DNA of 37,547 nucleotides from a virus. Its lineage: Duplodnaviria > Caudoviricetes. Shown piece after piece: positions 3,884 to 37,547 of this stretch. The stretch lies in IMG/VR virus record IMGVR_UViG_3300044616_000283, positions 1-37,547 of that record, one strand, 5' to 3'. The first letter of the stretch is position 1. Each line of letters opens with the position of its first letter. The position numbers were made by a program, and so were the translations under genes. The notes below the pieces were generated by a model that did not search any database, was not told the DNA's origin, and saw only the letters and a program-made list of their open reading frames with translations.

Positions 3884-6800
3884 ATGGCAACATATGACAA
3901 TTTAAATATAGCAACAACAACGCTGACCTTTGATGGTAATGGAAATACTTCCGTTGCTTCGGGTACATTTGATTTAAGTACATTAAACTTTTTACCTAAT
4001 GTTCCTCTTATTGATCAGATTGAAGTAGAGCGTGTTTTTGATACAGGATATGACACTAAGTTTGGTGCTTATGCGTTTACTATTGCTGATCGTAGGCAGA
4101 TGTTTATCTTTCCAAAAGATTGGTATACAATCAATGAACAGACGAAAGTATTAACATTTAAAGATCTTAGTACCATTCCACTTAAGACTAGTAATAATTT
4201 AGATTATCCTTATTCTAGAACTTATACCTTAGTAAGTACATTGACAATTGATATTCCAGTTGTTCAAGCTTCTTACTCCAGCGTAAATGGTATTGTTAGA
4301 CAAGCAGATATAGTTTATATCCGCCGTAAGACACCCTCAATCAATAGTATTGTTACTTTTGCTCCCGGTACTCGCTTGACTACAACTCAGTTAAACCTGC
4401 AGTTTGATCAGCTAAAGTATATTGTACAAGAATTGGCAGCAAAGTTCCGTAATGAAGCTATTTTAAAGTATGATGAAAATGCTACAGATGGTCCCTTCCT
4501 TGGACAAGGCGATCTGAAGATGAATAACAACTATATTAAAGATGTTAATTCTCCAGCATTTACTCAACTTGGAACTTCTATTGCAGATAACACAAACACT
4601 ACTTTTAACGCTTCTACCTTCCTTATCAATTTAGATACATTAGGTGATGCGATTATTAATGGTACTCTGCATAGAACTGGTGTTGATAGTTCTCCTCCAA
4701 CATTTACTGGAGACTATACTGCAGGTAATCGTAAATTAATAAACTTAAGTGATGGTACATTAGTTACAGATGCAGCTACTATTGGTCAAATTCAAAACGC
4801 CAATAACATAACAACAGGCACACTTAGTGCTGCAAGAATTGGTGATGGTACTCTTTCTTTAGGAAAGCTTTCACAAGCGGCTGGTCAAAACTATGTCTTG
4901 CCTTCAGATGCTCTTCCTGTAGCAAACAGCTTGAGTTCAACTACAGCCTTTGGTGCTAGCACTGGTAGCAATACCAATAATATGCTATACGCATCTGTAG
5001 ATACTAAGGGAAGAATTACTTCTATTGGTCATCGCAGCCTAGTTACCGCAGATCTACCTGATACATTAGTAACCCCCGGAACCTATGGTGATGGTTCTAC
5101 AGTTCTTACACAGATAACCGTAGATAGCAAGGGCCGCATTACTGGGGCACAAGAAAGTTCTATTAGTGCTTCAAATATTACTTCTGTTAATGCTAGCGCA
5201 GTTACTGGTGCTCTTACTTCAGGTAACCTCCCATCGGGAGTAGTAACTGCGGGTGTTACTAGCATCCCCAATAGCATCACTGTCGATACCTATGGTCGTG
5301 TGACTTCCGTATCCGGCGGTAGTATTACAGCTAGTAATGTTTCCAATTTTAATAGCGCAGTCCAAACAAATAGACTTGATCAAATGGCGGCTCCTACAGC
5401 AGCTGTAAGTCTTAATAACCAAAAGATTACAAACCTAGATACACCATCTGCTAATGGAGATGCGGCTACTAAAGGATATGTAGATACAAACTTTACTAAA
5501 ACTGTAGATCTTAATACACCTATTGATAATCGTCTACAAACAAACTCTGTTTACTTATCAGCTACTGGTATATTAAATGCAGGTGGTAAACCAATTACCA
5601 ATGTTGGAGCCACAACCAACGCTAATGATGCAGTCACAAAGAGTTACTTAGAAGCCAATGCAATCTATGCAACTGGCACTAATCTAAGTGCGGGTAATAA
5701 ATATCTTACTGATTTAATTATGCGTCCGAGTGGCTCATTGTCAGCCAATGATGCAGTTAACTTTGGTTATATTGAAACCGCAATTTTAAATGCAGGAGGA
5801 CAACAACTAGTTGGTACTTCTTCTCCTCAGGTTTTCAAACAAACTTGGGCATCGGCTACTAATATCTCGGCATTCAATACTCCTTTTACTGGTTATTATA
5901 GATATCAGTTTAATTTTGTAGATCCCGGAAATCCATTATACGCAACTAGTGCAACAATGATGCTAGTTGAAGGTACTGGTGGTACTAGAGTCTTTACTCC
6001 TAATCTAGCTAATGCTACTGCTGGTACTGTCTATGATGGTTACTTCTGGTTAGATACTAGTGGTGGTACAACTAAAGTATTAAATGTATATGTTAATAGC
6101 ACACCAACAAATGATATTACAATTAGAAACTTTGGTTTATCTCGCATTGTAGCTGGTGGAACAGCCACAACTAGCTCAACTGGTTTAGTATCTATTGCTT
6201 CTGGTAATGATGGTGGTATTAGTGTATCTGGTGCGGGTGCTATTGCAATAATTCCTGCTACCTCCTCTCAACTTGGCGGTCTAAAGTTAGGCACAGGCTT
6301 AAGTGCAGGTACTGGTGGTACTGTAAATGTTGCTTTTCCAATCGCTAATAATACTACCCTTGGTCAAGTTTTTGTTCCTGCTGTTGCTACAAGTGGTCTG
6401 AATTTAAACACCACAACAGGTGCTCTATCTTTATCCACAGCATCCTCAACACAACTTGGTGGTGTTAGAATTGATGATACCGCTGGCTTGACAAATACAA
6501 GTGGTTTAATTTCAGTAACACGAAGTGATTCTACTAGTAGTACTTCTACTACAACACTAGCTAACTCTAAGGCAGTGAATGACCTGCGTGGCTTAACCGT
6601 GCTACGCGATGGTACTCAGGCTATGAGTGGAAAGCTAACCGCAGTTGCATCAACCACAAGCATTGCAAGTCTAAACTTGCCTTCAGGCGTGGCCCCAAAC
6701 TCTCCTGTTATTGGCGATGTTTGGAATCAAAGCGGTACACTAAAGTTACGCACTGATAGCAGCACAACCAAGGATATTGCTTTTACAGATAGTTCTATTA

Positions 6801-26800: not shown

Positions 26801-28317
26801 CTGGTTATGGTACACTTACTACAGATTCCAGAATGGGCACTCGTTTTGCAAAGGTTGCTCAGAATATCCGTAATGCCAATGGACTAGGGGAAACTCTGGT
26901 GACCATTGGTGAGGGTGCTGCCGAAGGTATGCAAGCCCTAGGCTCACTGTCGGCTCAGACACAAGCTGTGCGTGTACTGGGTAAGGTGAGAATGCAACGG
27001 TCTATCTGGCATTACTTTGAAAACGGTAGTGTGGAAAAGCTAATCACTAGACTAGAAGACCCAACGGTTGCTGCTGAGTTAGCTGAGCTTAACAAGGCTG
27101 CTGCCGTTGATCAAGCCCAACAGGTCAAACTATGGAAGCGCTTTGCTGGCGTTGCCAGAGAGAGTGGCTTTGGTATGGACCAGCATGATGCCATGATGTT
27201 CCTCAAGTACGGCTTTGGTGATGCTGAGACTGTCAAGGCCTTTAAGTGGGCCATGACCAAAGTCAAGCATGACAAGGGCCGTGTCAATATGAACCTCCTT
27301 TGGGATCTGGCTGATCAGGTTGCCCGAGAAGGCTCCAAGGAAGTAGACCCAGAGATTCTGGGTAATGCCCTATCAAATTATCAATTTATGTTAGAGGACA
27401 AAATTACCAAGGAAGTAGCAAGCGAAGTCCGTGGGTTAAACCGACAGACAGACCTTGAATCCAGAAGCGCTCTTGGGCGTCTATGGTATGCCTTGAGTTC
27501 CTTTACTCGTTCATATCAGGATAATGTGATTATGGGTTACGGTAGCAAGAGTACCATCAAGTACCTTGCTGGTGGTATCTTCTTGTACATGGCAGTGGAT
27601 GCCCTAACCAGTTACCTTAAGGAATATCTAGCAGGGCGTGACCACAAGGATATCCTACAAGAACTGGAGGATCGTCCAAGTGAGTTCATGATTCGTGGTG
27701 CTGCAAGAACCCCATTCATGGGAACATGGAATGGATTCTTGGAAGCTGGTCTAGCTGGAGCCTCGGCTCTCAACGGTGGAACCTATAAGTACTACGGGAT
27801 TCCCGGACTACCCGCAGGTGCCTCTGCTGGTGAAGCTGCTCTATCCGATATCTACAATAACACCAAGACATTGGTGGGTAGTGATTCTGACATGGGTAAG
27901 AGACTTAAGGCAGCTAGTGGTCTATTGGGTGTTTCAGATATAGTTAATCGTAGTCAGGCTGCTATTCCTATCCGTGTCCTACAAGACATGGGGGCCATAG
28001 AACAACAGTCTGCCGTAGGAACTTATTTGGATCTCATCCACAGAAAGCCATATCCCTACATGAAGCAGAATGCTAGTGCTGGTACTTATCAACCAATGGA
28101 CCCCAATGATTATCAGCCTACTCCAAGGAACTTTGCCAAGGAGGCTTCGCAATACGAGGCTGCTAAGCAGATGACCAAGCAGTTCCCGCTGCCACCAGAG
28201 AGAGTGGTAGTACCTAAGAGAACCGCAACATCTAGGGGTACGACCAGTCAGATGTTTAATTCGACTAGTCCCAATACAGGAGTGTCAGGTGAACTAGGGG
28301 ATCTCCTAGATCAATGA
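17857..28317 (+). CDS. Giant polyvalent internal virion protein (gp16-like position) with metallopeptidase, ADP-ribosyltransferase and ECF-sigma-like domains
   Basis: ATG at 17857 after GAAAGGG (track start is TTG 17836). HEIGH at 20593-20607; ART-PolyVal-like block 21811-22455; sigma region 2/4-like block 22801-23376; hydrophobic segments near both ends. Confidence 0.8.
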   Translation: MFDFAQGFPSQPSLPTSGPLNYQAEKLIQVRGFGEMGLNPVNMVGGMLNQVVGDDYVRVLDASGLRDGINWTHGELRKVADNREYGNLEYFINTLNGGKQNDAAVGLGWALEPSQAMLYRQIMGNNPLEPVMFAPSEVTPEIMAAEEQELKGLLSTDGVSEENQKRVQEISNKKAYVESKTQADKNLGFNWWDWYKQTNVFNAASTLGVNVLGDKDIIDTLTEYDPNFKSNDWFDNFAADPIVKQGLLENGITADTVAESPNADHAFMRISHMMYESNTQKRLGTYKPTNYDFVKNMGSGLVSFMVDTPTGATIITGAAVTTAASIFSPANFAAVGATALGEAAVLGESAVATSSTMTFLNGAKTLGETLYKLPLGMAPQWMEGTTLLSMTAANIASGAIQGTIGSYNQQANEISFGAATMYVNPSVRREMDYSEVAIEALYSGVMMGGLFGLGGGLLRSVKGMTDNGLKGLIIDPVTGKRNRLDRSFTFQDTPLGNTLQMLHIKDYERSLIDLKPVDVVRNEAILEKTDPTPDRLAAETEGYADRAEAREALKNPEAAEATPEDVGTRKYESETTEQYINRVAPSRTIRNLPELVTEVARRTQVEGGRMISSTEEYHQMTPQDQARTLIRTQAVLEAAKKAEEKAVGLPKERERVFEQLEASRKEALRRIGKTLTPIEFKRLKAELKGDKPKVKGSLPELLTVANDKAKPIAERKANAEEAAGQILETARAVIKNPDKAKVIKSKVPQEILDKVDAVVVEEALTGRVSAETAEEVKRSLLSAEEPFTSSLTKRIERAVKVNRLSPDRVARINAIKEDHTRFVSLVKGNKMRALALYNHIHEGVVTGVLTAEDRVLILASVSHLNFDLKGFAMEYAYKNMDDVNVAGEYNAKTRVLTLNTKSTPSNRAHTVLHEIGHALFSNDMRGEVYLENLKLYNSMREGTPLSSKGIQLIDPLTENLGKYHLQNVEESFVQLFSNVVLAETAQVMTPMESTMVRKTFAFIEKAILNATIALDESKYYERANAVIKALTEVDNKVIRQSVSVSSLLRAIATAEEARPKNVAQFNFEIAKSLGARHPEVDKAVIRETFTDAEYKMLFKQVNDPTSLAAFAITRESGKPIVDEAGRFTVHAPKFFEAYSEYKKAQYNSAATRVAYMLRSMSYKLLTGMTKEERENFFTYEMFDINAKQEKGSPYEKSLNDNLSATYEDNHLASMNLNGGNYATDYLMTTAESFVELLQEDGMSDIAPSAMTLSAAAREALISRIQEDPYLSKPIMEQLREHFDKAGLTKYYQRAFDTMQKNLILRMYEEGVFSMNDLKLVWDTPEFKQYFGNSKVVDENGNPLIMYHGTSDTNSISIFNFDQHVDRDWGRKAGLVNYLGRVFYFSKNAKDASDFALYERSGENASVYPVYLRIEKPFDTSVEFSQKDAKKLLVGFYEQLLKETPDNKDLAAQLYFLKLTLVDSTLGKDIYKQLADIGGHADRANAYLQTLGYDGIIDISSDMGVQYAVFKPEQIKSIWNDGTFSRTNPDIRRSINPEVSKKREMIGVLQQFIGDKNAFNAMPLEDLLRNVMGLEETLVVKYMNLGKSNPIKALQALQIAVSKNLIEHDGANWILKVEQVAPNEPVQPKMPSPKKIAMVETKAKLVTAKTLDAELMNYAAKVDSVSKEITQEALQEALVAFLDTTSPQRAALLAKLEEGMTSKELGYYLRRAVKNNEISEQRNQNKNQNIETDEGKPKDGKVRQAIDTTKQRQLDANMYSLMQFLHDKFLQKTNTGLFNETQMKTLLTLSKNRTVKLANGKEEVAPPTLDEAAKLLGLSGKSGVSERIKAMKRTMQKKLGLADKDVAKIFSSEKELTNKEKTVLFDKLEEAMERLVEASKEKPKADPEPVLPPAEKLVETGNQILDTINQTAKMEQKADPVAVPKTEESTGHATVDTGAEAPKETPKLVHTEPVADAVASGETNMTKTAVQLDIKKSFSMKGIFTQASDALDRLFNALAIEYPDEVVSLKTVKDQHAFVVKLLKEKGYDSVIDERGNVVPLKEPKVIGKTKKRISKEVAEKQQDPTVVTKDETTFSTEDGVPVATTETVVETPKAPVGPVETPAGDRTVVPTPTKTVSDVAKLPEAETLERKVNEDPKLLRNNGMDRSFLKLFTKAYWKSKIEASANDRAIAKMAEESNGGANAANTMMARAFFSGTNSVSHSITEKFKTAWGDFVQVNQFIAEANKRMFGEDIMERFWKKVDEINAVDRIRPKAAEGPAGIKPLTYREVLDKAAEAMNEEGKPAFVRPLLPDEIKFVKADEAGNVRLSGKNKQTRAIIDAALTEAEKVEPPKVEKVLDAEGKVVPEDTTPVKPEEPTPPTTEDQMIDAAVDGSESATSRPWRLNNFVGHLFGGDNTANATWWRKQMAKLANATQSSSQLGNTIRSFNDSIAFISRWADDTRAQTGHVVGVGKTPFKTMLQIKMDEGRVITRILRAYSDFDTTLRGANKPAVQSYIYDCLRKGEQPNKAEMIKLGVGVHNAEAAVKKAGYLLEISRAINDKILYMENTTGRLVTTDKHGMPLDPKKYAPVQFDHEALMRIAPGEHSKIIDAMVIARTATKLNDPRLDRNTMIVMGWIDVKYNKETGGYEFFSKERQLKHSEGANMFGNDTLAKLQVSKIAKEGTGGDKGILKNLLRKGDPNKYFILESDTEYTVYRLPEVLEDLGNADKAKYTEAVKGNTAHYTIDWRERLGNKNLIQREMEEMFAYKTKKAPYTDDSYGLVRSMFKIDENGRSGITVPGLTPEEMLSDPMLAKLLRTNLAEAYFHWVKGRYFDLSFQQELDRVMGTKGITWDKVTSRVAKRAQDDISKIAVDSGWTSKQLDSAHRDINNGIKRLQEEFRAGAETLPFFANKGPLGSRAANAAIRFKFSVGYGVSQFTEILQELVKHSPEFYTMPKNIFEALRYVVGDYRISKNKMLMSELGDMTFVLEAFKTDLSNRFMGETGYGTLTTDSRMGTRFAKVAQNIRNANGLGETLVTIGEGAAEGMQALGSLSAQTQAVRVLGKVRMQRSIWHYFENGSVEKLITRLEDPTVAAELAELNKAAAVDQAQQVKLWKRFAGVARESGFGMDQHDAMMFLKYGFGDAETVKAFKWAMTKVKHDKGRVNMNLLWDLADQVAREGSKEVDPEILGNALSNYQFMLEDKITKEVASEVRGLNRQTDLESRSALGRLWYALSSFTRSYQDNVIMGYGSKSTIKYLAGGIFLYMAVDALTSYLKEYLAGRDHKDILQELEDRPSEFMIRGAARTPFMGTWNGFLEAGLAGASALNGGTYKYYGIPGLPAGASAGEAALSDIYNNTKTLVGSDSDMGKRLKAASGLLGVSDIVNRSQAAIPIRVLQDMGAIEQQSAVGTYLDLIHRKPYPYMKQNASAGTYQPMDPNDYQPTPRNFAKEASQYEAAKQMTKQFPLPPERVVVPKRTATSRGTTSQMFNSTSPNTGVSGELGDLLDQ

Positions 28318-28360
28318 CATGCCGAATAGATGGGGCTATAGATATAATACTATAGATATA

Positions 28361-28533
28361 CCTAGGTTAACCTAGGGGAGTAGCTAAGCTACTCTCCTAG
28401 GCACCTAGGAAATTCCTATAGATTTTAGTTTAGGTTTTATTACTATGGATATAGCTTAGTCCCCTAGGTATCTCTCTAGTTAAAATCACAATAAATTATC
28501 CAACCTAGGTCCCATGGAAACATGGACCTAGGT
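28361..28533. repeat. CCTAGG array with palindromes and hairpins at probable genome end
   Basis: CCTAGG at 28361, 28371, 28396, 28404, 28463, 28504 and 28527; perfect 16-bp palindrome CCTAGGTTAACCTAGG; hairpins 28371-28401 and 28503-28533. Confidence 0.8.
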
Positions 28534-28698
28534 ATTATGCGTATCACTGGTCAACCTCCCCCCGGTCTTGCCGGGTAGGTCCCTTGTCGATTTCGGTAGC
28601 TGCCCCTCCCCGCTCACTGCCGGGGGAGCTCCCTTAGCTACGTTTGTTCCTGCTGGCCCTACGATGCCTCAGGAACGCTTCCTGAGAATCCAATGGGT

Positions 28699-28724
28699 CC
28701 AAGGGGCACCAAGGAGAGCCAAGG
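28699..28724 (+). repeat. Three CCAAGG copies at 10-bp period
   Basis: CCAAGG at 28699, 28709 and 28719. Confidence 0.7.
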
Positions 28725-28824
28725 CCCCATAAGCGATTCCTAAGAAAATCGACTTAGGGGTAAAAAATTAATAAATGACTATCCCCCCTAGGTCCCCCCT
28801 TCCCGCCCCCCGGTACCCCCGTGG

Positions 28825-28878
28825 GTCCGATAACCAAAGGTCCGATAACCTGAGTCCGATAACCTAGGTCCGATAACC
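28825..28878 (+). repeat. Four iteron-like direct repeats GTCCGATAACC
   Basis: Exact 11-mers at 28825, 28840, 28854 and 28868 (periods 15, 14, 14). Confidence 0.9.
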
Positions 28879-29018
28879 CAGATCTGCGGGGGGGTCTGAA
28901 CATTCCCCGCTGAACTCGTCTACTGGTGGCGGAGCGACCCGCCCTCTTTGACAATCCAACGGAGTGTTTCCCCGCGCGGCCATCATGCCATAGTGGAAAC
29001 TGGTTCTAACGAATCATC

Positions 29019-29471
29019 GAATGCCCGATCCCAAGTACGCTAGGTTACCATAGGGTAGCCAACGTAGCAAGCCGGACCCCTGAAAGGGGGTCGCGGGAAG
29101 TACGCCTAGCCTAACGGGAACGCAACCGGAACGATGAAACGAACGAACTGTAATACCTGTCGCCCCTTGGGTGGGGCAAGGTAGTGCGCGTATCCCGGAT
29201 GGCTAACGGGAACGCATGGACGGGAACGGTAGCACGTTCCACCCATGAAACAATAACTAACTTCCGATACCCTGCATTCTTTCCGCAGGGTATCGGCTAG
29301 AATTCTCCGTAGTCGTTAGGGCCAGCCTACCGCCTAGGACGCTATGTGTTATCGGTTCCGCCCATATTGGCCAGTATCCGATAAGTACCGCGTTACCTTG
29401 GCATCTATAAATGGTCCCTGAACTATGCGGAGGGTTCTAGCCGATCCGTCCAACGTGGACAATCGGGATTC
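29019..29471 (+). ncRNA. Candidate large structured non-coding RNA or early leader
   Basis: No credible ORF; many helices containing G-U pairs, a GAAA tetraloop (29075-29092) and a ~19-bp long-range helix (29293-29311 with 29426-29444). Confidence 0.5.
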
Positions 29472-29494
29472 AAGTTTACTGGAGATTGAACACA

Positions 29495-29941
29495 ATGGAC
29501 ATGCCTACTTTCGTTCGCGTTGCGATCGCTTGCAATCTTTCCGGCGCGTTCGCGGATTCCCTCAAGTCCCCCAAGTCATTCACGGCTACGGGGAAGGTGG
29601 ACTGCCGGAAGTTTCCGGCTTTGCTTGAGAAGGTTGCGTACATGTATAACAAGGAATGCACGCACAAGTTCTATATGCTGAACATTCTGTGCGGCAAGGA
29701 TGGCATTCCGATGAATGACATTCTAAACGATGAGAATGAGATCGTGCAGAAAGGTTTCCGGTGGCGCGGCAACGCTACGGAAGGTATCGAAGCCCATCCG
29801 GCGGCTGAAGTGTTTCAGGATCTTTGCACCTCCTATCTGCGTGCTAACTTTCCGAACCTGAATTGGGAGGTGGAGTCATCTGCTCCGCAGGTTCGCCGCA
29901 AGGATATCCCGTCCGATATCCTCGCCACGCTCGATATCTAA
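29495..29941 (+). CDS. First early gene, hypothetical protein
   Basis: GGAG RBS at 29481; ATG 29495 (track start TTG 29486); GC-richer codon usage than the late genes. Confidence 0.8.
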   Translation: MDMPTFVRVAIACNLSGAFADSLKSPKSFTATGKVDCRKFPALLEKVAYMYNKECTHKFYMLNILCGKDGIPMNDILNDENEIVQKGFRWRGNATEGIEAHPAAEVFQDLCTSYLRANFPNLNWEVESSAPQVRRKDIPSDILATLDI

Positions 29942-29947
29942 TCGGGC

Positions 29948-30020
29948 CGTCTATCCCCCGGCTTTGCCGCAGGGGATGGACGCTAGGGTATCCCCTGCGG
30001 GGGATGCTCTAGCGTCTATC
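29948..30020 (+). promoter_or_regulatory. Overlapping long hairpins (RNase III-like processing site or switch)
   Basis: GATGGACGCTAGGGTATCCCC-tgcg-GGGGATGCTCTAGCGTCTATC (21 bp with G-U) competes with hairpin 29948-29982. Confidence 0.55.
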
Positions 30021-30048
30021 CGCTCGCCATCAATCCGAAAGAATCCCC

Positions 30049-30369
30049 ATGAAGGCTTTCCAGAAGAATGTGCTTGAGATGTATGTCCGCCGTGCAATGC
30101 AGACGGGAACTATGGCAGATGCTGCCATTGCTGCGGACTATCTGTGCAAGGTATCCGGTAGTTCCTATGCGAACTGCATTGCTGCTCTTTGCAAGGCATA
30201 CGGTATCCGCCATGCGGATCGTATCTGCAAGGATCGTCCGGGCATGTATGTTTCCAAGAATCCTGCACGGGAATTGGCTGCAGGATGTATCGTCAAGTTT
30301 GATAAGGAAACTATCTCCGTGAAGCGTATCCCGGAGGTTGTCCCCGCTGCTATTCTCATGTCCATCTAA
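30049..30369 (+). CDS. Hypothetical early protein
   Basis: 106-aa ORF with codon style like its neighbours. Confidence 0.7.
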   Translation: MKAFQKNVLEMYVRRAMQTGTMADAAIAADYLCKVSGSSYANCIAALCKAYGIRHADRICKDRPGMYVSKNPARELAAGCIVKFDKETISVKRIPEVVPAAILMSI

Positions 30370-30382
30370 CCGGAGGTAAACA

Positions 30383-30637
30383 ATGACCACTTTCAAGTAT
30401 AACGGCAAGTCTTTGGTTTGCGTTGTTCAGTATAAGGATGTCAATGATTCGATGACATCTATGACTTGGTTTGAAACTTTCGATGGTAAGATTGTGATTG
30501 ATACGGAGAATGCCCACTATCCCGAAATGTATGGGTTGGCAATGGTTGATTACATCAACGATGCCAGCGCCCGTGAATGTCTCCATAAGTTTGCGGATAC
30601 TGCTAGGTTTGGCGCAGACTATGTGCTTGTTGGTTGA
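30383..30637 (+). CDS. Hypothetical early protein
   Basis: GGAGGT RBS; 84 aa. Confidence 0.75.
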   Translation: MTTFKYNGKSLVCVVQYKDVNDSMTSMTWFETFDGKIVIDTENAHYPEMYGLAMVDYINDASARECLHKFADTARFGADYVLVG

Positions 30638-30644
30638 ACACTTT

Positions 30645-30678
30645 GGTATGCCATAGGGAAACCTATGGTATGCCTTTC
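30645..30678 (+). terminator. GAAA-tetraloop hairpin, copy 1 (terminator or processing site)
   Basis: GGTATGCCATAGG-GAAA-CCTATGGTATGCC-TTTC. Confidence 0.55.
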
Positions 30679-30696
30679 GTCTGGCTTCTTTATCTA

Positions 30697-30721
30697 TCCG
30701 GCTATGCCGGGAAAGGTTTGA
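30697..30721 (+). repeat. 25-bp direct repeat, copy 1 (hairpin + RBS)
   Basis: TCCGGCTATGCCGGGAAAGGTTTGA, identical at 30950-30974. Confidence 0.9.
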
Positions 30722-30725
30722 GACA

Positions 30726-30974
30726 ATGGCAAACGCAATTAGACATTCATCTAACTTCAAGGATCGTACTGTTAGGGGAATCATTGGTTGTCAGGAAATC
30801 TTCTACTCTCGTTTGAAGGAATCCCTTCCTGAAGATAAGCACGGACTTCTTGAGTGTATGTTTCAGACAATGAATTACTTCGCTCAAGATCTAGAAGATT
30901 GTATGGAACAGAACAAGAATCTCCGCAAGGATCTTGAAGGAATGAACACTCCGGCTATGCCGGGAAAGGTTTGA
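30726..30974 (+). CDS. Hypothetical early protein
   Basis: 82 aa; GAAAGG RBS; bracketed by the 25-bp repeats. Confidence 0.7.
   Translation: MANAIRHSSNFKDRTVRGIIGCQEIFYSRLKESLPEDKHGLLECMFQTMNYFAQDLEDCMEQNKNLRKDLEGMNTPAMPGKV
30950..30974 (+). repeat. 25-bp direct repeat, copy 2
   Basis: Exact match to 30697-30721. Confidence 0.9.
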
Positions 30975-30975
30975 C

Positions 30976-31068
30976 ATGTCTACCTTTCTTCTGATTGGTG
31001 TGGCTTTGCTTGGAATCTTTGGTGTGTATATTCTTCTTTGGTGTGCTGAAGAGAATAAGAATCTTTAA
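30976..31068 (+). CDS. 30-aa single-TM peptide (not in ORF track)
   Basis: MSTFLLIGVALLGIFGVYILLWCAEENKNL, preceded by the repeat-borne RBS. Confidence 0.55.
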   Translation: MSTFLLIGVALLGIFGVYILLWCAEENKNL

Positions 31069-31079
31069 TAGGAGCTGAA

Positions 31080-31349
31080 ATGCGAGTCATCACTCTCTCT
31101 GATATGCTTGGTAATAACCGCTACAATCTTTGCATCCTTGGTGATAATAAGACAGGAAATGATTCTGTTAAGGATGCGATCAAGTCTGTTATTATGAGTA
31201 ACTATGAAAATTGTGAAGGTAATTATTCTGTTCATATTGAATCGGCAAAGTATGGTGATTATGTGGTAGTTATTACTACGGATCAATATGTTGAACCTGT
31301 TGCTGTTCGTTTGGCACTGATTCAAACTGTCCCTGTATACGGTACTTGA
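31080..31349 (+). CDS. Hypothetical early protein
   Basis: AGGAG RBS; 89 aa. Confidence 0.7.
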   Translation: MRVITLSDMLGNNRYNLCILGDNKTGNDSVKDAIKSVIMSNYENCEGNYSVHIESAKYGDYVVVITTDQYVEPVAVRLALIQTVPVYGT

Positions 31350-31363
31350 TCTAGGAGAAATAA

Positions 31364-31561
31364 ATGCGTACCTTCAAGGTAACTTGGGCATGTAATACCT
31401 GTTGTGGTATTTCTGTTTCTGTTACTGTGGAAACAATGACGAAACGGGAAAGCGAAAGAGAGCATGTGATTGGTATGGCAAAGCATAAGATGAATGTTTG
31501 TCGTATCAATGGTGATTGGTTTGATGCCATTGATTGCTCTGTTGTTGAAGTTACTACCTAA
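31364..31561 (+). CDS. Hypothetical early protein with CxxCC
   Basis: AGGAG RBS; 65 aa. Confidence 0.7.
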   Translation: MRTFKVTWACNTCCGISVSVTVETMTKRESEREHVIGMAKHKMNVCRINGDWFDAIDCSVVEVTT

Positions 31562-31751
31562 TCTATAGACCCTATATAGGAAGGGTAAGTCCTATCTTCC
31601 ATACCTTTACTTACTTGGGGGTATGTTTGTATTACGAGTAAGCGTAACATAACGAGAGGATGTGGTTTGGTGTAATCCTAAACACCATAAGCACAACTAG
31701 GCAAGCAATCAGATAGTGCAAGATGCACGGCGCGCAGATTGCCCGACTAGT

Positions 31752-31785
31752 GGTATGTCTTAGGGAAACCTATGGCATATCTTTT
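31752..31785 (+). terminator. GAAA-tetraloop hairpin, copy 2
   Basis: GGTATGTCTTAGG-GAAA-CCTATGGCATATC-TTTT. Confidence 0.55.
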
Positions 31786-31870
31786 GTCCACCTTGGTAAG
31801 TCCCGAATAGGCTTCGGCTGTGGCATTCTTCGGAATGTCTAGGGATTACTTTCTTTCTTTAGGAGAACTA

Positions 31871-32023
31871 ATGGAACCGTATGATATTGCTGTTGTTACT
31901 GGAGATGCTGCTGTGGTAGTTCATAAGGTTTATGCGGGTACTGAAGATGAAGCAGTGGATTCTATTCGCATCTTCTACAAGGATATTACTATTGTTGGTA
32001 TTATTCTTGGAGCTGAAGGATAA
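31871..32023 (+). CDS. Hypothetical early protein (50 aa)
   Basis: AGGAG RBS at 31861 favours ATG 31871 over track start 31820. Confidence 0.65.
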   Translation: MEPYDIAVVTGDAAVVVHKVYAGTEDEAVDSIRIFYKDITIVGIILGAEG

Positions 32024-32142
32024 TGTATATCCTCTTTATTGCTTCGGGTACTATTCTTTCTCTCTTGCTGTGTTGTTATCTAGACTATCTAGGTTTCTTT
32101 AATTGGATAAAGGAGATTATCAATGAGCGTTTCTACCGTTGA
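32023..32142 (+). CDS. 39-aa hydrophobic peptide
   Basis: MYILFIASGTILSLLLCCYLDYLGFFNWIKEIINERFYR; TAATG coupling to the upstream gene. Confidence 0.45.
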   Translation: MYILFIASGTILSLLLCCYLDYLGFFNWIKEIINERFYR

Positions 32143-32278
32143 ACATGTGTATGATGTGGTCGTGAATGGTATGTGCCTTGCTTCTTTCTGTAATAAGTAT
32201 GAGGCTAATAGGTACGCTATTGCCTACGCTTCTAATTACGCAGGATCTAATGTGCAGGTGATCTACAATGGCAAGTAA
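32123..32278 (+). CDS. 51-aa hypothetical protein
   Basis: AAGGAG RBS; MSVSTVEHVYDVVVNG... Confidence 0.6.
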   Translation: MSVSTVEHVYDVVVNGMCLASFCNKYEANRYAIAYASNYAGSNVQVIYNGK

Positions 32279-32483
32279 TGACTATCTGCATTATGTGTTT
32301 CAGCAAAACAATAGTGGTGGATATTATGTTGGGCCTGATGAGTTTGTTGTGACTGCCTTTAGTCTTGATGAGGCATGGGAAATTCTTAAGGCACAGTCTT
32401 GGTATACTGATGAGTACTGTGAGTGTTGTGGTACTCGTTGGAATAGTTGGGGACACATTTCTACTATGGAGATTGAGTACTAA
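32268..32483 (+). CDS. Hypothetical protein with C-x-CCG-x-RW motif (possible metal binding)
   Basis: 'FQQNNSGGYY...YCECCGTRW'; overlaps both neighbours. Confidence 0.7.
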   Translation: MASNDYLHYVFQQNNSGGYYVGPDEFVVTAFSLDEAWEILKAQSWYTDEYCECCGTRWNSWGHISTMEIEY

Positions 32484-32620
32484 TGGAAGACTATTACCCC
32501 GATGTGGATGCTATGTACGAAGAGCGTACCGAAGTTATCAATGAGTGGTATGATGCCATTGATGAAGTGATCAATACCTATTACGAGGATGACACCGATG
32601 AAGATTCATGTTGTGTTTGA
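32483..32620 (+). CDS. 45-aa very acidic peptide
   Basis: MEDYYPDVDAMYEERTEVINEWYDAIDEVINTYYEDDTDEDSCCV; TAATG coupling. Confidence 0.55.
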   Translation: MEDYYPDVDAMYEERTEVINEWYDAIDEVINTYYEDDTDEDSCCV

Positions 32621-32744
32621 GTTTCCCGATGTGAAGGATGTTGAGTCTACCGAAGCAGACTATACTCTTGAGTGTCTGTCTGATGACCTTAAGAAGTATG
32701 CCGGCGGCATGTGTGAATGGTACATTGACGATGTAACGGAATAA
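32598..32744 (+). CDS. 48-aa acidic hypothetical protein
   Basis: GAGGA RBS; MKIHVVFEFPDVKDVES... Confidence 0.55.
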   Translation: MKIHVVFEFPDVKDVESTEADYTLECLSDDLKKYAGGMCEWYIDDVTE

Positions 32745-32748
32745 ACAA

Positions 32749-33588
32749 ATGACTACTCTGCAAAAGAACTTTGTTGGTGAATTCACTACCGTTGTTCGTT
32801 CTCCTAAGTCCGCACCCTCTTTTGATGGACAGAAGTATACGCCTAAGCAGTATCTCTTTGATGCCGAGCTGAATGAGTGGGTATCTTTCTATTGGATTGA
32901 TGCTCCCTTCCATAGTGATGGTGGTGGAGCACAATGTATGTGGCTTAGTAATAATGCAGAAGAAGAGAATGCTGAAGAGTTTGGAATCAAACTTACCAGT
33001 CAGAACCTTGGTGATGGTAAGGCTAAGGCAGCAGCATTTGCTATGTATCAACGACAGAAAGCAGCAGCAGAAGAATTGTGTGCGCCTCCTGTGCATGGCA
33101 TGTGTTGCTTCAAGTATTATCATAAGGGTAATCGTAGTGTTACTACTTTTTGGGGCTACCTTTCTTGTGTAGCAGGTTGTGTTGGTGATATTGAAGAATC
33201 TGATGACTCTAAATGTGAGTATGATTCTTATGTTACTGAGCAGATGCATAAGTGGGATAAGTATGATGAGATTTCTGATCTCTTGGATGAGATGGGTGTC
33301 TATAGCCGTAGCATCCTAGGTCATATTGCAGTAGAGATTGGCCCCCATCCTGATGATTGTAACTACCATGATTGGTGTGATGACAATGGCTATGAACAAT
33401 ACTTTGGTAAGCAGGATCTTTATGAGAACCTGAAGAACATTGACATTAGTCATGTGCAAAATGACTGGCAATCCCTTGGTACTCCGGGATACCATCGAAA
33501 TATGGGTGGTGATCTTCATGCCCATAACATGGGCTACTGGAATGGTAACCTTGTGTGTATTGACTTTGGCTATCACTGCGTTCAGTAA
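32749..33588 (+). CDS. Protein kinase-like protein (analogous to T7 gp0.7)
   Basis: Gly loop 'DGGGAQC', beta3 lysine 'GIKL', catalytic loop 'DLHAHNMG' and Mg-binding 'CIDFG'. Confidence 0.82.
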   Translation: MTTLQKNFVGEFTTVVRSPKSAPSFDGQKYTPKQYLFDAELNEWVSFYWIDAPFHSDGGGAQCMWLSNNAEEENAEEFGIKLTSQNLGDGKAKAAAFAMYQRQKAAAEELCAPPVHGMCCFKYYHKGNRSVTTFWGYLSCVAGCVGDIEESDDSKCEYDSYVTEQMHKWDKYDEISDLLDEMGVYSRSILGHIAVEIGPHPDDCNYHDWCDDNGYEQYFGKQDLYENLKNIDISHVQNDWQSLGTPGYHRNMGGDLHAHNMGYWNGNLVCIDFGYHCVQ

Positions 33589-33596
33589 GGAAACAA

Positions 33597-33797
33597 ATGA
33601 ATAATTCTTGCTACACAATCGTTAAGGAGTATGACCTCAATGGAGTATGGTTCACTGTGTATGTGGGACAGCATCCCATTGATGGGTTCAGAGATCCAAA
33701 GGATGCCTATCTCTTTGGAGAATGGTATACAAATTCAAGTAAAGAAGATACCGATGAACGACACCCATGTATGGATAGCACAAGTACTAACCTATGA
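33597..33797 (+). CDS. Hypothetical early protein
   Basis: AAGGA RBS; 66 aa. Confidence 0.6.
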   Translation: MNNSCYTIVKEYDLNGVWFTVYVGQHPIDGFRDPKDAYLFGEWYTNSSKEDTDERHPCMDSTSTNL

Positions 33798-33894
33798 GTA
33801 TCCTTGTTGGACCACGGTATGCGCCGGGGAAACTCCAACGCTTGCACTTATGGCGGCTTGCCGAATATGTGGGGCTATGGATAGAATTCCATAG
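33754..33894 (+). CDS. Hypothetical early protein (46 aa)
   Basis: C-terminal part of track ORF 33631..33894, starting MNDTHVW; start uncertain. Confidence 0.4.
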   Translation: MNDTHVWIAQVLTYEYPCWTTVCAGETPTLALMAACRICGAMDRIP

Positions 33895-33974
33895 GACAAA
33901 ACCACCAATAACCCCACCCCTAGGGGAACCTAGGATCTATAGTTTGTGTAAATTATTTTTAGTATAGGATTACT

Positions 33975-34232
33975 TTGGAACGAACAACCCACCACTTTGC
34001 TAATATCCCAACAGATTCTTACGGTAATATCTCCGTAGAGTTTGGAGTTCTTTGGACTACCCATCATAACAACTGGTATCTTTCAGATATCTTTGTTGAG
34101 ATGGCGGAACCCGATGTTCTTTCTATGGAAAGACTTCGACATCTTGTGCTTGACTTTGTTGAAGTCAACGGTTACAATCCCACTACCCCCTATGAAGGAG
34201 AGTACGATGAAGAGACTAATGATGCTGATTGA
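33975..34232 (+). CDS. Acidic hypothetical protein
   Basis: TTG start after AGGA; acidic tail YEGEYDEETNDAD. Confidence 0.6.
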   Translation: MERTTHHFANIPTDSYGNISVEFGVLWTTHHNNWYLSDIFVEMAEPDVLSMERLRHLVLDFVEVNGYNPTTPYEGEYDEETNDAD

Positions 34233-34476
34233 AGTTGAGAATACGGAACAGCAACAGATGTTCTATGATGTACTTCAGGAGATGATTGAGGATCGTTCTC
34301 TTTGTGGTTACTTTACATTGGTCGATCATGGTGAGGGTATTGATGACCTGCCTGATTACATGGACTACGAAACAAAGCAGTTGATCCCATTGATTGCAGC
34401 GTTTGAACAAGAGTTTATTAATACTAACAAGCCAATGGACAATAAGCATGGATCAATCCACGACGATAATCTCTAA
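34219..34476 (+). CDS. Acidic hypothetical protein
   Basis: Start MMLIEVE preferred because it avoids a long overlap with the upstream gene. Confidence 0.6.
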   Translation: MMLIEVENTEQQQMFYDVLQEMIEDRSLCGYFTLVDHGEGIDDLPDYMDYETKQLIPLIAAFEQEFINTNKPMDNKHGSIHDDNL

Positions 34477-34663
34477 CAATATCGAACTGTTGCTTGAGGT
34501 CAAGGACAATATCCCTAACTGGATTCATAACTCAACCGCAAGGAATCAAGCGATTGATCTTCTGAATGATATGGATATCATGACCTATAGAAAGTTTTGG
34601 CTGACTGAAGAAGAGGAGTTTCTTCTTGACTATATCTCTAACACTATTGAGGCTTACTGCTGA
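34448..34663 (+). CDS. Hypothetical protein
   Basis: MDQSTTIIS...; TGATG coupling to the next gene. Confidence 0.55.
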   Translation: MDQSTTIISNNIELLLEVKDNIPNWIHNSTARNQAIDLLNDMDIMTYRKFWLTEEEEFLLDYISNTIEAYC

Positions 34664-34899
34664 TGACTACTGAGACTAATGCTATGACTGAGGCGCTTGC
34701 TGTTCTGTCTGAGGCTATTGCTGAACAGGTTACTAAGAATCTTAATGATGTTATTAACCTTAAGATCAACCGCGCTATTGAAGAGTACATGGATAATGGT
34801 GACTTCCTCTATAGCCTTGAGGATACCATCAAGGATAAGATGTCTGATATCGTGGACGATCATGTGAGCAACATCTCTCTCCGTATTGAGGTCGATTAA
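34663..34899 (+). CDS. Acidic helical hypothetical protein
   Basis: 78 aa; GAGG RBS; coupled on both sides. Confidence 0.7.
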   Translation: MTTETNAMTEALAVLSEAIAEQVTKNLNDVINLKINRAIEEYMDNGDFLYSLEDTIKDKMSDIVDDHVSNISLRIEVD

Positions 34900-35147
34900 T
34901 GAATAAGACATACGATATCTTTGGACCTATCGTGGTGAACTATTGGAAGGATTGCCTCAGTTGTTGGCAGATTAATCCTGATAAGATTAATGAGAGCGAT
35001 CTTACTGAGTGGATTAATACCATGGAATCTTTAGTGATGGATAATCTTTGTGATACAATCCCTGATGAATGGTATCCCGAAGATGATGAGGATGAAGATG
35101 ATGGGGAATGGGAAGACCTTCCTAATCATGATGATGAAGAAGACTAA
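34899..35147 (+). CDS. Very acidic hypothetical protein
   Basis: Tail EDDEDEDDGEWEDLPNHDDEED; TAATG coupling. Confidence 0.7.
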   Translation: MNKTYDIFGPIVVNYWKDCLSCWQINPDKINESDLTEWINTMESLVMDNLCDTIPDEWYPEDDEDEDDGEWEDLPNHDDEED

Positions 35148-35173
35148 CGCGGCTATGCCGTAAGGAGTTGGGT

Positions 35174-35413
35174 ATGCTAAATGGAATCTTGATTGCTGTT
35201 GGAATTACTTTACCTATTGCACTTCTTATGTATGACATGATCATTTCTAAGAAGCGGTTAGATATTCTTGAGACTGAGGTTACTACCTTGCGTACTTTAA
35301 TGCGTGAGCTTAATGTAAACAAGGATACTGAGAAGTTTAGCAAGGGTGACGAAGCGTATAATATTCTTCGCACCAATGCCAAGCGTATTGGACTGAGCCA
35401 TTGCTTTAAGTAA
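35174..35413 (+). CDS. Membrane-anchored coiled-coil hypothetical protein
   Basis: AAGGAG RBS; N-terminal TM segment. Confidence 0.65.
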   Translation: MLNGILIAVGITLPIALLMYDMIISKKRLDILETEVTTLRTLMRELNVNKDTEKFSKGDEAYNILRTNAKRIGLSHCFK

Positions 35414-35421
35414 TGGACATT

Positions 35422-35498
35422 GGAAGGGTGCCTGATAGATTGGTAAAAGGTCATCGCTTATAACGGTGCTAATGTGGGTTCGACTCCCATCCCTTCCA
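35422..35498 (+). tRNA. tRNA-Ile(UAU)
   Basis: Acceptor GGAAGGG/CCCTTCC, anticodon arm CATCG-CTTATAA-CGGTG, T arm GTGGG-TTCGACT-CCCAT, discriminator A; CCA not encoded. Confidence 0.88.
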
Positions 35499-35527
35499 TT
35501 CCCATATGGGATTACAAAGGAGATACT

Positions 35528-35902
35528 ATGAAGAAAGATATTGCTAAGATTTGGGTAGATGCTCTGCAGTCTGGTGAATATGATCAAGGATCTGAGTACT
35601 TGTGTGCAGGTGGTAAGTACTGTTGTCTTGGTGTTCTTTGTGATTTGTATGCTCAGGATACTGCTGACAATCTTCGTATTGTAGAAAAGGAGAAGGGTGA
35701 TAGTGGGTTTATTATTACCTACTATAATCATGACTCTGAAGTTCTTCCCGATGTTGTTCAGGAGTGGGCTGGTATGAGTACTAATACAGGTAAGTATCTC
35801 AGTGATTCCCTGTTTGAGTCTTCACTTGCTAGTGACAATGATCAAGGTGATACCTTTCATGAGCTGGCTAAGAAGATTGAATTGTATGCTGATGATCTGT
35901 AA
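35528..35902 (+). CDS. Conserved-looking phage protein (WxxALxSGxYxQ...CCLGVLC)
   Basis: AAGGAG RBS before ATG 35528. The track start 35474 lies inside the tRNA. Confidence 0.75.
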   Translation: MKKDIAKIWVDALQSGEYDQGSEYLCAGGKYCCLGVLCDLYAQDTADNLRIVEKEKGDSGFIITYYNHDSEVLPDVVQEWAGMSTNTGKYLSDSLFESSLASDNDQGDTFHELAKKIELYADDL

Positions 35903-35909
35903 TCTGTTT

Positions 35910-35985
35910 GCCCTAGTATCGGCTCACTCTTCTAAAGTGTAGTACCGTAATTGGATCTATGTTGGTTCGATTCCAACCTAGGGTG
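35910..35985 (+). tRNA. Atypical tRNA-Arg(UCU) lacking a D-arm
   Basis: Acceptor GCCCTAG/CTAGGGT, T arm GTTGG-TTCGATT-CCAAC, anticodon CACT-CTTCTAA-AGTG; only ~8 nt between acceptor and anticodon stems. Confidence 0.7.
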
Positions 35986-36062
35986 TGTTAAATCCGCTGC
36001 ACAGTAGGCTTTGTCCCTACCTCCCTTGAGGCAGTTAAGTATGATGATGGGCGGCATCGTAT

Positions 36063-36135
36063 GGCATCGTAGTCCAAAGGCAGAGACAGTTGACTTAAAA
36101 TCAATCAAGTGTGGGTTCGACTCCCACCGATGCTA
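36063..36135 (+). tRNA. tRNA-Leu(UAA) with short variable loop
   Basis: GGCATCG/CGATGCT, GTTGA-CTTAAAA-TCAAT, variable loop CAAGT, GTGGG-TTCGACT-CCCAC, discriminator A. Confidence 0.88.
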
Positions 36136-36151
36136 CTAAGAAAGGATACTT

Positions 36152-36478
36152 ATGGGACTTGATAGTTTTGCTATGCTTGAAGATTGTCCGATGGATAGTA
36201 AGTTGTTTGAGCACCTTCCTCCTGTGCTGTGTGGTGGTATGTTCAGTGATGGACATTCATCTATTCGGGGTAAGGTTTATAATGAACTCGTTGAATCCAC
36301 TAGTGGTATCTCTCTCTATCAGGAGAAGATCCCTAACTCTCAGGTTGCCATGATTGCCATGGCTCTTGAGGATGCAGGACATACTGGTTCTGGTTTGTCA
36401 AGTAAAGAATACACTACTCTAATCGAATGGTTCAGGATCATTCACAACAATGGAGGATACATCATTGGCTGGTGGTAA
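36152..36478 (+). CDS. Hypothetical phage protein (MGLD... N-terminus)
   Basis: AAAGGA RBS; 108 aa. Confidence 0.75.
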   Translation: MGLDSFAMLEDCPMDSKLFEHLPPVLCGGMFSDGHSSIRGKVYNELVESTSGISLYQEKIPNSQVAMIAMALEDAGHTGSGLSSKEYTTLIEWFRIIHNNGGYIIGWW

Positions 36479-36484
36479 CCGATA

Positions 36485-36817
36485 ATGCTAATAAACACAT
36501 TCACAAAAACGGTTGGATCTAATCCAAATTTATATTCGATTTTCCAGATGGCCCTTGACAGAGGAACAACGGCGTGGTATAATGGTGCAACGGAACAGCG
36601 ATGGGATGATAAACTCCATATCATGCTGTCGATGATTCAGGTTGATACTACACAAGGTATTGAGAATCGAATGATCAAACAGTACATTACTTATGAGGAC
36701 CTTAAGGAACTGAGCATGCTGTTATGGCAAGCACAGACTGCATATGAATCCAGACAGAAAGAACTCCAAGAAGAAACTCAAAGAGCAAGAGAAGCCGCGA
36801 ACGAAACCAAGGCTTGA
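36485..36817 (+). CDS. Hypothetical protein
   Basis: 110-aa ORF directly after the previous gene. Confidence 0.6.
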   Translation: MLINTFTKTVGSNPNLYSIFQMALDRGTTAWYNGATEQRWDDKLHIMLSMIQVDTTQGIENRMIKQYITYEDLKELSMLLWQAQTAYESRQKELQEETQRAREAANETKA

Positions 36818-36887
36818 TCCCTACAAGAGAAGTAAAGTTAAGAATAATGACCGCGTTGGTCGTTATGATTCACAAGATATAGATTAA
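36744..36887 (+). CDS. 47-aa basic peptide
   Basis: MNPDRKNSKKKLKEQEKPRTKPRLDPYKRSK...; fills the gap before the DUF932-like gene but overlaps the upstream ORF by 74 nt. Confidence 0.35.
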   Translation: MNPDRKNSKKKLKEQEKPRTKPRLDPYKRSKVKNNDRVGRYDSQDID

Positions 36888-36895
36888 GGAATAGA

Positions 36896-37547
36896 ATGGC
36901 TCACAATATTACGGATACCGATGGCGCTGTGTTTCACAAGGAAGCAGCATGGCATGGTCTTGGTCTCGTTATTCAGGATGATATGTCGCCTACTGAGGCT
37001 ATGAAGATTGCTGGTCTTGATTGGACTGTTAGCAAGGTTGGTCCTGTGTTTGCAGGTAATCCACTCTCTGTTGTTCCGTCCTCTGATGAGTACGCTGCCA
37101 TTGTTCGCAACGATACTAACACTATCCTTTCGATCCAGTCCCCTGACTATCAGATCGTACAGAATAGTGAGGTGTTTGATATGGCCTACAACCTTGGTGC
37201 TGATATCAAGGTTGAGTCTGCGCTCTCCATGAATGGTGGCAAGCGTATGGTTGTGCTGTGCAAGACTGGTACTATGGATGCTGGCAATAGCAATGATCCG
37301 GTGGAACAGTACATGGCACTGATCAATAGCCACGATGGTACGCTTGCTGAGCAAGCCCTGCCTACCTCTGTCCGTATCGTGTGTCAGAATACTCTGAGCA
37401 TGGCTATGGCTTCGGGTGCTAAGAAGGCTTTCCGTATCGTGCATACTGGTGATATGAAGAAGAAGCGTGAGGCTATGGCCGATGCTCTCAAGTTCTATGC
37501 CAAGACTGGCAAGCTCTTTGAGGAAAAGGTTGATACCCTTGTCCGCA
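36896..37547 (+). CDS. DUF932-family phage/plasmid protein (partial, runs off the window)
   Basis: MAHN...AWHGLG...AGLDWTV...YQIVQN...GGK...NSHDG...TSVRIVCQNTL...HTG; AAGGA RBS. Missing from the track because it has no stop. Confidence 0.88.
   Translation, partial: MAHNITDTDGAVFHKEAAWHGLGLVIQDDMSPTEAMKIAGLDWTVSKVGPVFAGNPLSVVPSSDEYAAIVRNDTNTILSIQSPDYQIVQNSEVFDMAYNLGADIKVESALSMNGGKRMVVLCKTGTMDAGNSNDPVEQYMALINSHDGTLAEQALPTSVRIVCQNTLSMAMASGAKKAFRIVHTGDMKKKREAMADALKFYAKTGKLFEEKVDTLVR

Follow-up and report, generated by a model that had tools for sequence, protein, structure and literature searches.

The window, by which we mean the whole stretch of 37,547 nucleotides that was analysed, is a 37.5-kb piece of a T7-like phage that has not been cultured. 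The late genes, also T7-like (tail tubular proteins A and B, tail fibre, terminase and internal virion proteins), occupy positions 175–28317 on the plus strand and served as the late set in codon comparisons. The early region, in which 23 ORFs were counted, extends on the same strand from 29495 to 37546, with a DUF932 gene at its far end. Between the two lies a non-coding junction (28317–29495) with short repeats and GC-rich hairpins, the probable genome end region. Relatives of 62–67 kb are common in IMG/VR, and five of them (G001–G005) were read whole or nearly so; their gene calls are automatic and noisy in the early regions. The closest relative, G004 (terminase 98%), is without the tRNA region. 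Among cultured phages the closest terminase is only 37% identical to that of the window, and the homolog and cluster listings of the window phage give no host organism.

The tRNA cluster lies on the plus strand within the early region. Its first gene, tRNA-Ile(UAU) at 35422–35498, is called by ARAGORN and Rfam as an ordinary cloverleaf with a large D-loop; it has discriminator A and no encoded CCA, and it is present in every related locus that extends to it. The UAU anticodon would read AUA without lysidine modification. Downstream are a 124-aa ORF (35528–35902) matching phrog_18067, of unknown function, a tRNA-Arg(UCU) at 35910–35985, and tRNA-Leu(UAA) at 36063–36135, which ARAGORN and Rfam find in ordinary order with a short variable loop. 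The same short loop occurs in the tRNA-Leu of L003–L023 and L636–L655, and the tRNA-Leu anticodon across related loci is UAA in 16 and CAA in 16. A preliminary description of this DNA had listed three tRNAs reading ATA, AGA and TTA. All three are real, but the UCU gene is not an ordinary tRNA: our parser and a family model (R1) identify it as a non-circularly permuted tRNA-Arg. In four metatranscriptome runs, 7–8% of sampled words were present; the assembled contigs leave 35832–36023 uncovered, one contig overlaps the tRNA-Ile gene, and the tRNA-Leu matches are mostly to other tRNAs.

The blocks of the permuted gene follow the order 1–9, 22–47, 10–21, 48–73, which places the 5' strand of the D stem and the D-loop after the anticodon arm. 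The 5' strand of the acceptor stem, seven nucleotides pairing with 35978–35984, is joined by U8 and A9 at 35910–35918, as read from the sequence. The block that is normally the second of the exchanged pair (35919–35944) comprises the D-stem 3' strand (35919–35922), position 26, the anticodon arm (35924–35940, with the anticodon TCT at 35931–35933) and a 4-nt linker. The relocated block (35945–35959), delimited by covariation, contains the D-stem 5' strand (35945–35948) and a D-loop carrying A14, A15, G18 G19 (35953–35954) and A20 (35955). U48, a 5-bp T arm, the acceptor 3' strand and G73 follow at 35960–35985, as seen in the sequence and by Rfam. Just 5 nt separate A9 from the anticodon stem, and the D hairpin (10–25) ahead of the anticodon arm is absent.

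As in a cloverleaf tRNA, the window copy has a 7-bp acceptor, a 5-bp T stem, a TTCRA loop and a 7-nt anticodon loop with U33 and R37. It also keeps U8, A14, R15–Y48 and G18 G19 in permuted order, several of these being required by the parser. The discriminator is G (G73), and CCA is not encoded. The gene carries the bacterial tRNA-Arg identity set (A20, C35, U/G36, A/G73), with A20 at 35955, the anticodon UCU and G73; A20 and U20 are listed as Arg and Ile identity elements in PMC9976931. ARAGORN calls no tRNA at 35910–35985, and in Rfam the gene reaches 30.6 bits, the alignment lacking a D arm and containing a 17-nt insertion. With R1, which was built partly from the window copy, it scores 82 bits, permuted members scoring 60–86 bits and canonical tRNAs 17–35. 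An assembly artefact is ruled out by L002, an independent contig that carries this gene too, with a compensatory replacement of A-U by G-C in the stem of block 35919–35944.

Five pattern scans of IMG/VR, together with flanking copies, yielded at least 199 distinct permuted sequences after three mis-parsed canonical tRNAs had been dropped. Conservation among the pooled copies is inflated, since the search pattern itself specified part of the D stem in three scans and the anticodon or A20 in two. The least biased set consists of 47 rows in which neither the D stem nor the anticodon was fixed, parsed without scoring D-stem pairing and including two mis-parses. Pair 11–24 forms in 45 of these 47 rows (shuffled mean 20.7) and pair 12–23 in 46 (shuffled mean 29.8), in tests that ignore relatedness among the sequences; all four Watson–Crick types are seen. 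Pair 10–25 forms in 24 of the 47 rows and in 151 of 201 pooled rows, and position 13–22, with U-U or U-C in most rows, pairs in 20 of 201, so that the D stem amounts to 2–3 bp. Among the matches listed, pair 15–48 is A-U in 194, G-C in 5 and A-C in 2 of 201 rows, all 177 Arg copies have A at position 20, 21 of the 22 Ile/CAU copies have U there, and the T stem is fully paired in 187 of 199 copies. The acceptor, anticodon and T stems and the rewired D stem all show paired variation across the family.

Folding was explored on a 36-sequence MAFFT alignment picked for diversity. RNAalifold, unaided, recovers the three-way structure from it, and 96.8% of cells are paired, against at most 46% for slid partners. 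When the blocks were swapped back in silico, ARAGORN called the right anticodon in 134 of 174 sequences, compared with 0 of 174 in native order, although this is an undemanding control, since ARAGORN also makes a call in 678 of 1740 sequences (39%) whose moved block was shuffled. In single-sequence folding the D-stem pairs have a median probability of 0.05 (0.48 in the window copy), exceeding 0.5 in 18 of 199 sequences. In this family the conserved segments follow a non-circular order and the helices covary, the combination by which a non-circular RNA permutation is recognised. We regard the identification of 35910–35985 as a permuted tRNA-Arg, in the structural sense, as well supported; that it is a working tRNA is probable.

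The permuted family comprises, among the matches listed, 177 Arg copies and 22 with UAU, CAU or GAU anticodons (at least 199 in total), nearly all from phages. The CAU anticodon in permuted copies is compatible with Ile2 or Met. By anticodon, the Arg copies among the matches listed divide into UCU (119), ACG (21), CCU (19), UCG (13), CCG (3) and GCG (2); their discriminator is G, A, U or C. CCA is encoded in 105 of the 201 permuted rows among the matches listed. The anticodon-free scan gave UCU 49, CAU 9, CCU 7, UAU 4 and CCG 2 among the matches listed, and the scan that left both D stem and anticodon free gave, likewise among the matches listed, 42 Arg and 3 Ile copies in 47 parsed rows. A narrow first pattern matched three loci. 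Scanning for non-A20 loops mainly picked up normal type II variable arms, along with nine permuted Ile/CAU copies among the matches listed. Tandem sets of two or three different permuted anticodons occur at 14 loci, some of them redundant. In L201, L176, L216, L168, L268 and L558, two to three neighbouring permuted tRNAs with different Arg anticodons lie in one phage. A divergent, permuted-looking Arg(UCU) gene at 2981–3064 of L024 has a longer linker and loop and scores 21 bits with R1.

Unannotated copies in wV8, phi92, PAK_P2, Wildcat and DC31 were confirmed with R1, the last three being R1 training sequences. One permuted copy used as a BLAST query found matches covering 80% or more of the query in 229 phage records, two of which were checked with R1. 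Some GenBank records under related matches are annotated as tRNA-Arg or tRNA-OTHER; such copies may therefore have been called with their order unnoticed. With the patterns tried, the permuted tRNA is rare in cellular genomes: one narrow pattern found three matches in 185,579 prokaryote genomes, one of them a true permuted copy, and a model search around that one genome found a permuted copy in 2 of 41 genomes.

The position of the gene was compared across 46 rows, of which 14 stop short of the Arg(UCU) slot. A canonical Arg(UCU) gene is found in this cluster at 30 related loci, whereas the window and L002 have the permuted gene instead. In G002 a canonical tRNA-Arg(UCU) comes immediately after the homolog of ORF 35528–35902; in the window the permuted gene takes that place. 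At none of 51 loci of at least 2.5 kb (some redundant) was a canonical tRNA with the same anticodon found beside the permuted copy, and in a Chloroflexi MAG array with 28 called tRNAs the permuted copy fills the Arg(UCU) gap. Because the permuted gene of the window is unlike the canonical gene of its relatives and resembles the permuted copies of unrelated phages, the sequences suggest that it arrived as a replacement by transfer. The order itself may have originated when the inner part was duplicated in tandem and two deletions then removed the surplus.

To our knowledge, the cloverleaf order has been treated as universal outside mitochondria. The gene shares with canonical class I tRNA-Arg(UCU) (RF00005; L003–L023) the 7-bp acceptor, U8 A9, the 7-nt anticodon loop, the 5-bp T arm, A14, R15–Y48, G18 G19, A20, C35, a length of about 76 and the same genomic slot; it differs in its exchanged blocks 10–21 and 22–47, its three-way junction, the missing D hairpin and its escape from ARAGORN. 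Circularly permuted tRNA genes also depart from the cloverleaf order, with 5' and 3' halves swapped and the normal tRNA restored by processing (PMC10085705). The gene is not of this kind: its acceptor 5' strand comes first and its 3' strand last, with the inner blocks exchanged. Eckert et al. (2023, PMC10085705) describe type SGC hammerhead ribozymes as the first case of non-circular permutation in nature, and the tRNA examples listed in that paper are all genes whose transcripts return to the standard form. As in those hammerheads, conserved inner segments are reordered and the core is kept (PMC10085705); unlike them, the permuted RNA here is a tRNA, and its activity is predicted from the sequence. 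Allo-tRNAs of the 8/4 and 9/3 types (Mukai et al., PMC5389517) are likewise non-canonical and missed by annotation, some of them with AGA- or AUA-reading anticodons, but they are described there as keeping the D hairpin and a long V arm with altered acceptor and T lengths. An allo-tRNA, which would have a long D stem capped by a tetraloop, is ruled out by the 7/5 branch, the lack of a D hairpin and the pairing of the relocated segment with positions 23–25. Bacterial Y RNA (circular) and the tRNA-like structures of TYMV and BMV (non-circular) reach a tRNA shape through other backbone connectivity (PMC11472068); these mimics are parts of other RNAs, unlike the permuted tRNA, which has a gene of its own within tRNA arrays and a complete anticodon arm. 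We found no description of the permuted topology in open-licence full-text literature; subscription papers and supplements (for example those of PMC5389517 and PMC10085705) could hold one.

Codons were counted in the 23 early ORFs (2214 codons) and in 12 late genes (9269 codons). Among Ile, Arg and Leu codons, ATA, AGA and TTA account for 18 of 366 in the early ORFs and 335 of 1700 in the late genes (p 4e-14), and each codon follows the trend: ATA with 2/140 against 55/534 (p 2e-4), AGA with 9/68 against 132/407 (p 9e-4) and TTA with 7/158 against 148/759 (p 6e-7). The early avoidance survives composition control in the form of a GC-neutral comparison with the T-ending synonym. The preliminary description had reported that the three codons are absent from 29495–29941, from the gene at 32749–33588 and from the visible part of the DUF932 gene, that late genes use them freely, and that codon 3 of tubular protein A is TTA, with an in-frame ATA-AAG-GCA-AGA at 466–477; the recount agrees on each point. 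The avoidance extends to A-ending codons with no phage tRNA: CTA, CCA, ACA, GTA and TCA fall from 940/3181 in late to 60/634 in early genes, a gradient of -2.0 log2 odds for these five unserved codons against -2.25 for the tRNA-matched ones. GCA, GGA and CGA show no early drop, and A at the third position makes up 13% in early and 26% in late genes. Early intergenic DNA has about equal A (263) and T (255); given this, and with GCA, GGA and CGA undepleted, a mutational bias of the strand is ruled out as the source of the early loss of third-position A.

Three relatives (G001, G003 and G005) have four tRNAs each, with Leu(CAA) as the sole Leu tRNA. Leu(CAA) cannot read UUA. TTA is nevertheless scarce in their early genes (6/117, 2/122 and 3/120, respectively) against 241/960, 313/1039 and 142/937 in late genes. 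In the window, AAA stands at 12/118 in early and 142/586 in late genes, though the cluster lacks a Lys(UUU) tRNA; late AAA use is 25% in the lineage without tRNA-Lys(UUU) and 47% with it, as a contrast of one lineage. Late AGA use is 32% in the window lineage compared with 42–47% in relatives with the canonical gene, and the sequences leave room for the view that this could mean weaker decoding by the permuted tRNA. The major capsid gene of four relatives takes ATA, AGA, TTA or AAA at 8 of 329 chances, and uses CTA at 42/133 and CCA at 47/64; the capsid assignment comes from a Pfam Gp10A-like match in G004 with an E-value of 3e-7, below the single-stretch cut-off, and the capsid gene of G002 stays inside its late set in the codon counts. 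A 177-aa middle gene, taken for an SSB with no Pfam match, likewise avoids tRNA-matched codons. Highly expressed genes avoid these codons whatever their timing.

The codons served by the tRNA set are those that the capsid shuns, and the lineage without tRNA-Lys has less AAA in its late genes. ATA, AGA, TTA and AAA are therefore probably slow in the host, and the phage tRNAs probably compensate; the host itself may be GC-rich. The preliminary description had gone further and proposed a timed early-to-late translational switch by phage tRNAs in a GC-rich host, like the bldA control of TTA codons. The strong early depletion of the three codons, which outlasts GC control, and the many such codons in the RNA polymerase, terminase and virion genes speak for a switch, as does a report that a scarcity of Leu(UAA) in the host can stop a cyanophage (PMC11726456). 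Such a switch does not fit the equal gradient of the five unserved codons, the TTA gradient in the three relatives that have Leu(CAA) only, or the AAA gradient in a cluster without a Lys tRNA. Furthermore, the capsid, which is the late protein made in the greatest amount, has little need of these tRNAs, and 11 codons of this type occur ahead of the first tRNA, within early genes. We consider the switch improbable. Late genes may depend on the tRNAs; a timed switch is not needed. Ordinary compensation together with translational selection fits the codon pattern better, and the pattern is nothing beyond known phage codon compensation, in which few tRNAs for A-ending codons and early/late codon differences have been described (PMC5683454, PMC11726456, PMC10264068); early/late differences were reported in half of 14 phages (PMC5683454).

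Other readings concern the permuted gene itself. The rewiring may have been selected to escape a host enzyme that cleaves or modifies tRNA-Arg or tRNA-Ile through the D arm or core, in a tRNA that still translates. The near confinement of the form to phages (one true copy in three matches from 185,579 prokaryote genomes, with a narrow pattern) and the restriction to Arg and Ile/CAU anticodons among the matches listed are in keeping with this, and phage tRNAs have been proposed to evade host tRNases (PMC10264068). However, the anticodon loop, the place where known nucleases cut, is ordinary, and close relatives do fine with a canonical gene, so that we hold escape from an enzyme to be a tentative idea. 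Equally doubtful, on the sequences at hand, is the broader proposal that working three-way-junction tRNAs are widespread in phages, would be accepted by synthetase, EF-Tu and ribosome, and would be shielded by their core from defences against Arg and Ile tRNAs. A weak D stem could instead point to a non-translating mimic that lures a nuclease or synthetase, or to a pseudogene in decay; such a gene would hardly be expected to show covariation in every stem, to keep six Arg anticodons with canonical loops, to replace canonical genes or to occur in tandem isoacceptor sets (14 loci, some redundant), and we judge this unlikely. Least plausible, and very unlikely in our view, is a tRNA that lacks a D arm and has a long variable arm, resembling mitochondrial tRNA-Ser or an allo-tRNA, which would be charged with serine and act as an AGA missense tRNA. 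The Rfam alignment without a D arm and with a 17-nt insertion, G73, a hairpin of at least 3 bp in the segment in 122 of 199 sequences against 99 of 199 shuffles, and the existence of allo-tRNAs with Arg-codon anticodons (PMC5389517) would agree with it. Against these stand the covariation of the segment with the strand ahead of the anticodon arm, the presence of A14, R15 and G18 G19 in the segment, a position 20 that tracks the anticodon, the 7/5 rather than 8/4 or 9/3 branch, and a discriminator that varies (G, A, U, C) in Arg copies.

The best explanation, to which we assign a probability of about 0.72, is a permuted Arg tRNA that folds directly, is charged by arginyl-tRNA synthetase and reads AGA, contributing to codon compensation rather than to a switch. 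Its transcript would fold into a tRNA-like L shape with no need for re-splicing. The D stem and anticodon stem would form one continuous helix, turning the four-way junction into a three-way one, with the backbone passing from A9 to 22, from 47 to 10 and from 21 to 48. In solved tRNA structures the points 9/22, 47/10 and 21/48 adjoin in the core. The relocated D-loop would dock on the T loop as usual, and host enzymes would trim the transcript and add CCA. The host arginyl-tRNA synthetase, reading A20 and C35, would likely charge the permuted tRNA, and AGA would likely be read. With Ile(UAU) and Leu(UAA), it would likely top up host tRNAs for slow A-ending codons in AT-rich, moderately expressed middle and late genes, the early and highly expressed genes shunning such codons through ordinary translational selection and not through timing. 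The permuted form may be kept as a tolerated variant spreading through phage tRNA arrays or, as a possible though less than even prospect, for escape from defence.

If this explanation is true, the translation machinery reads shape and identity bases and not backbone order, and tRNA becomes a second RNA class with natural non-circular permutation. It would also offer a new scaffold for engineered tRNAs, and phage tRNA inventories, along with arguments from a 'missing' Arg or Ile tRNA, would be incomplete. The copies in phi92, wV8, PAK_P2 and Wildcat, cultured phages that infect laboratory hosts, make it directly testable.

The early region holds several further features. The preliminary description had named the gene at 32749–33588 a kinase; a kinase-like C-terminal motif is visible in the sequence of its 279-aa product, with no Pfam or PHROG match to back the name. 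One low-depth metatranscriptome contig skips 242 bases at 35148–35391, most of ORF 35168–35413, and probably represents a strain without that ORF. A sigma-70 consensus promoter (12/12, with TG extension) at 36555–36583 lies inside ORF 36485–36817, downstream of the tRNAs and upstream of the DUF932 gene and, in relatives, of a probable RNA polymerase gene; the exact consensus occurs at this place only in L001 and L002. A Pistol ribozyme (38.9 bits, above gathering) is located at 4317–4388 of L011, upstream of the early genes of that relative; none is found in the window between 28200 and 37547. In the closest relative, a middle gene (L143, 933–1505) has a weak match to a citrate synthase C-terminal domain (E 1e-7).
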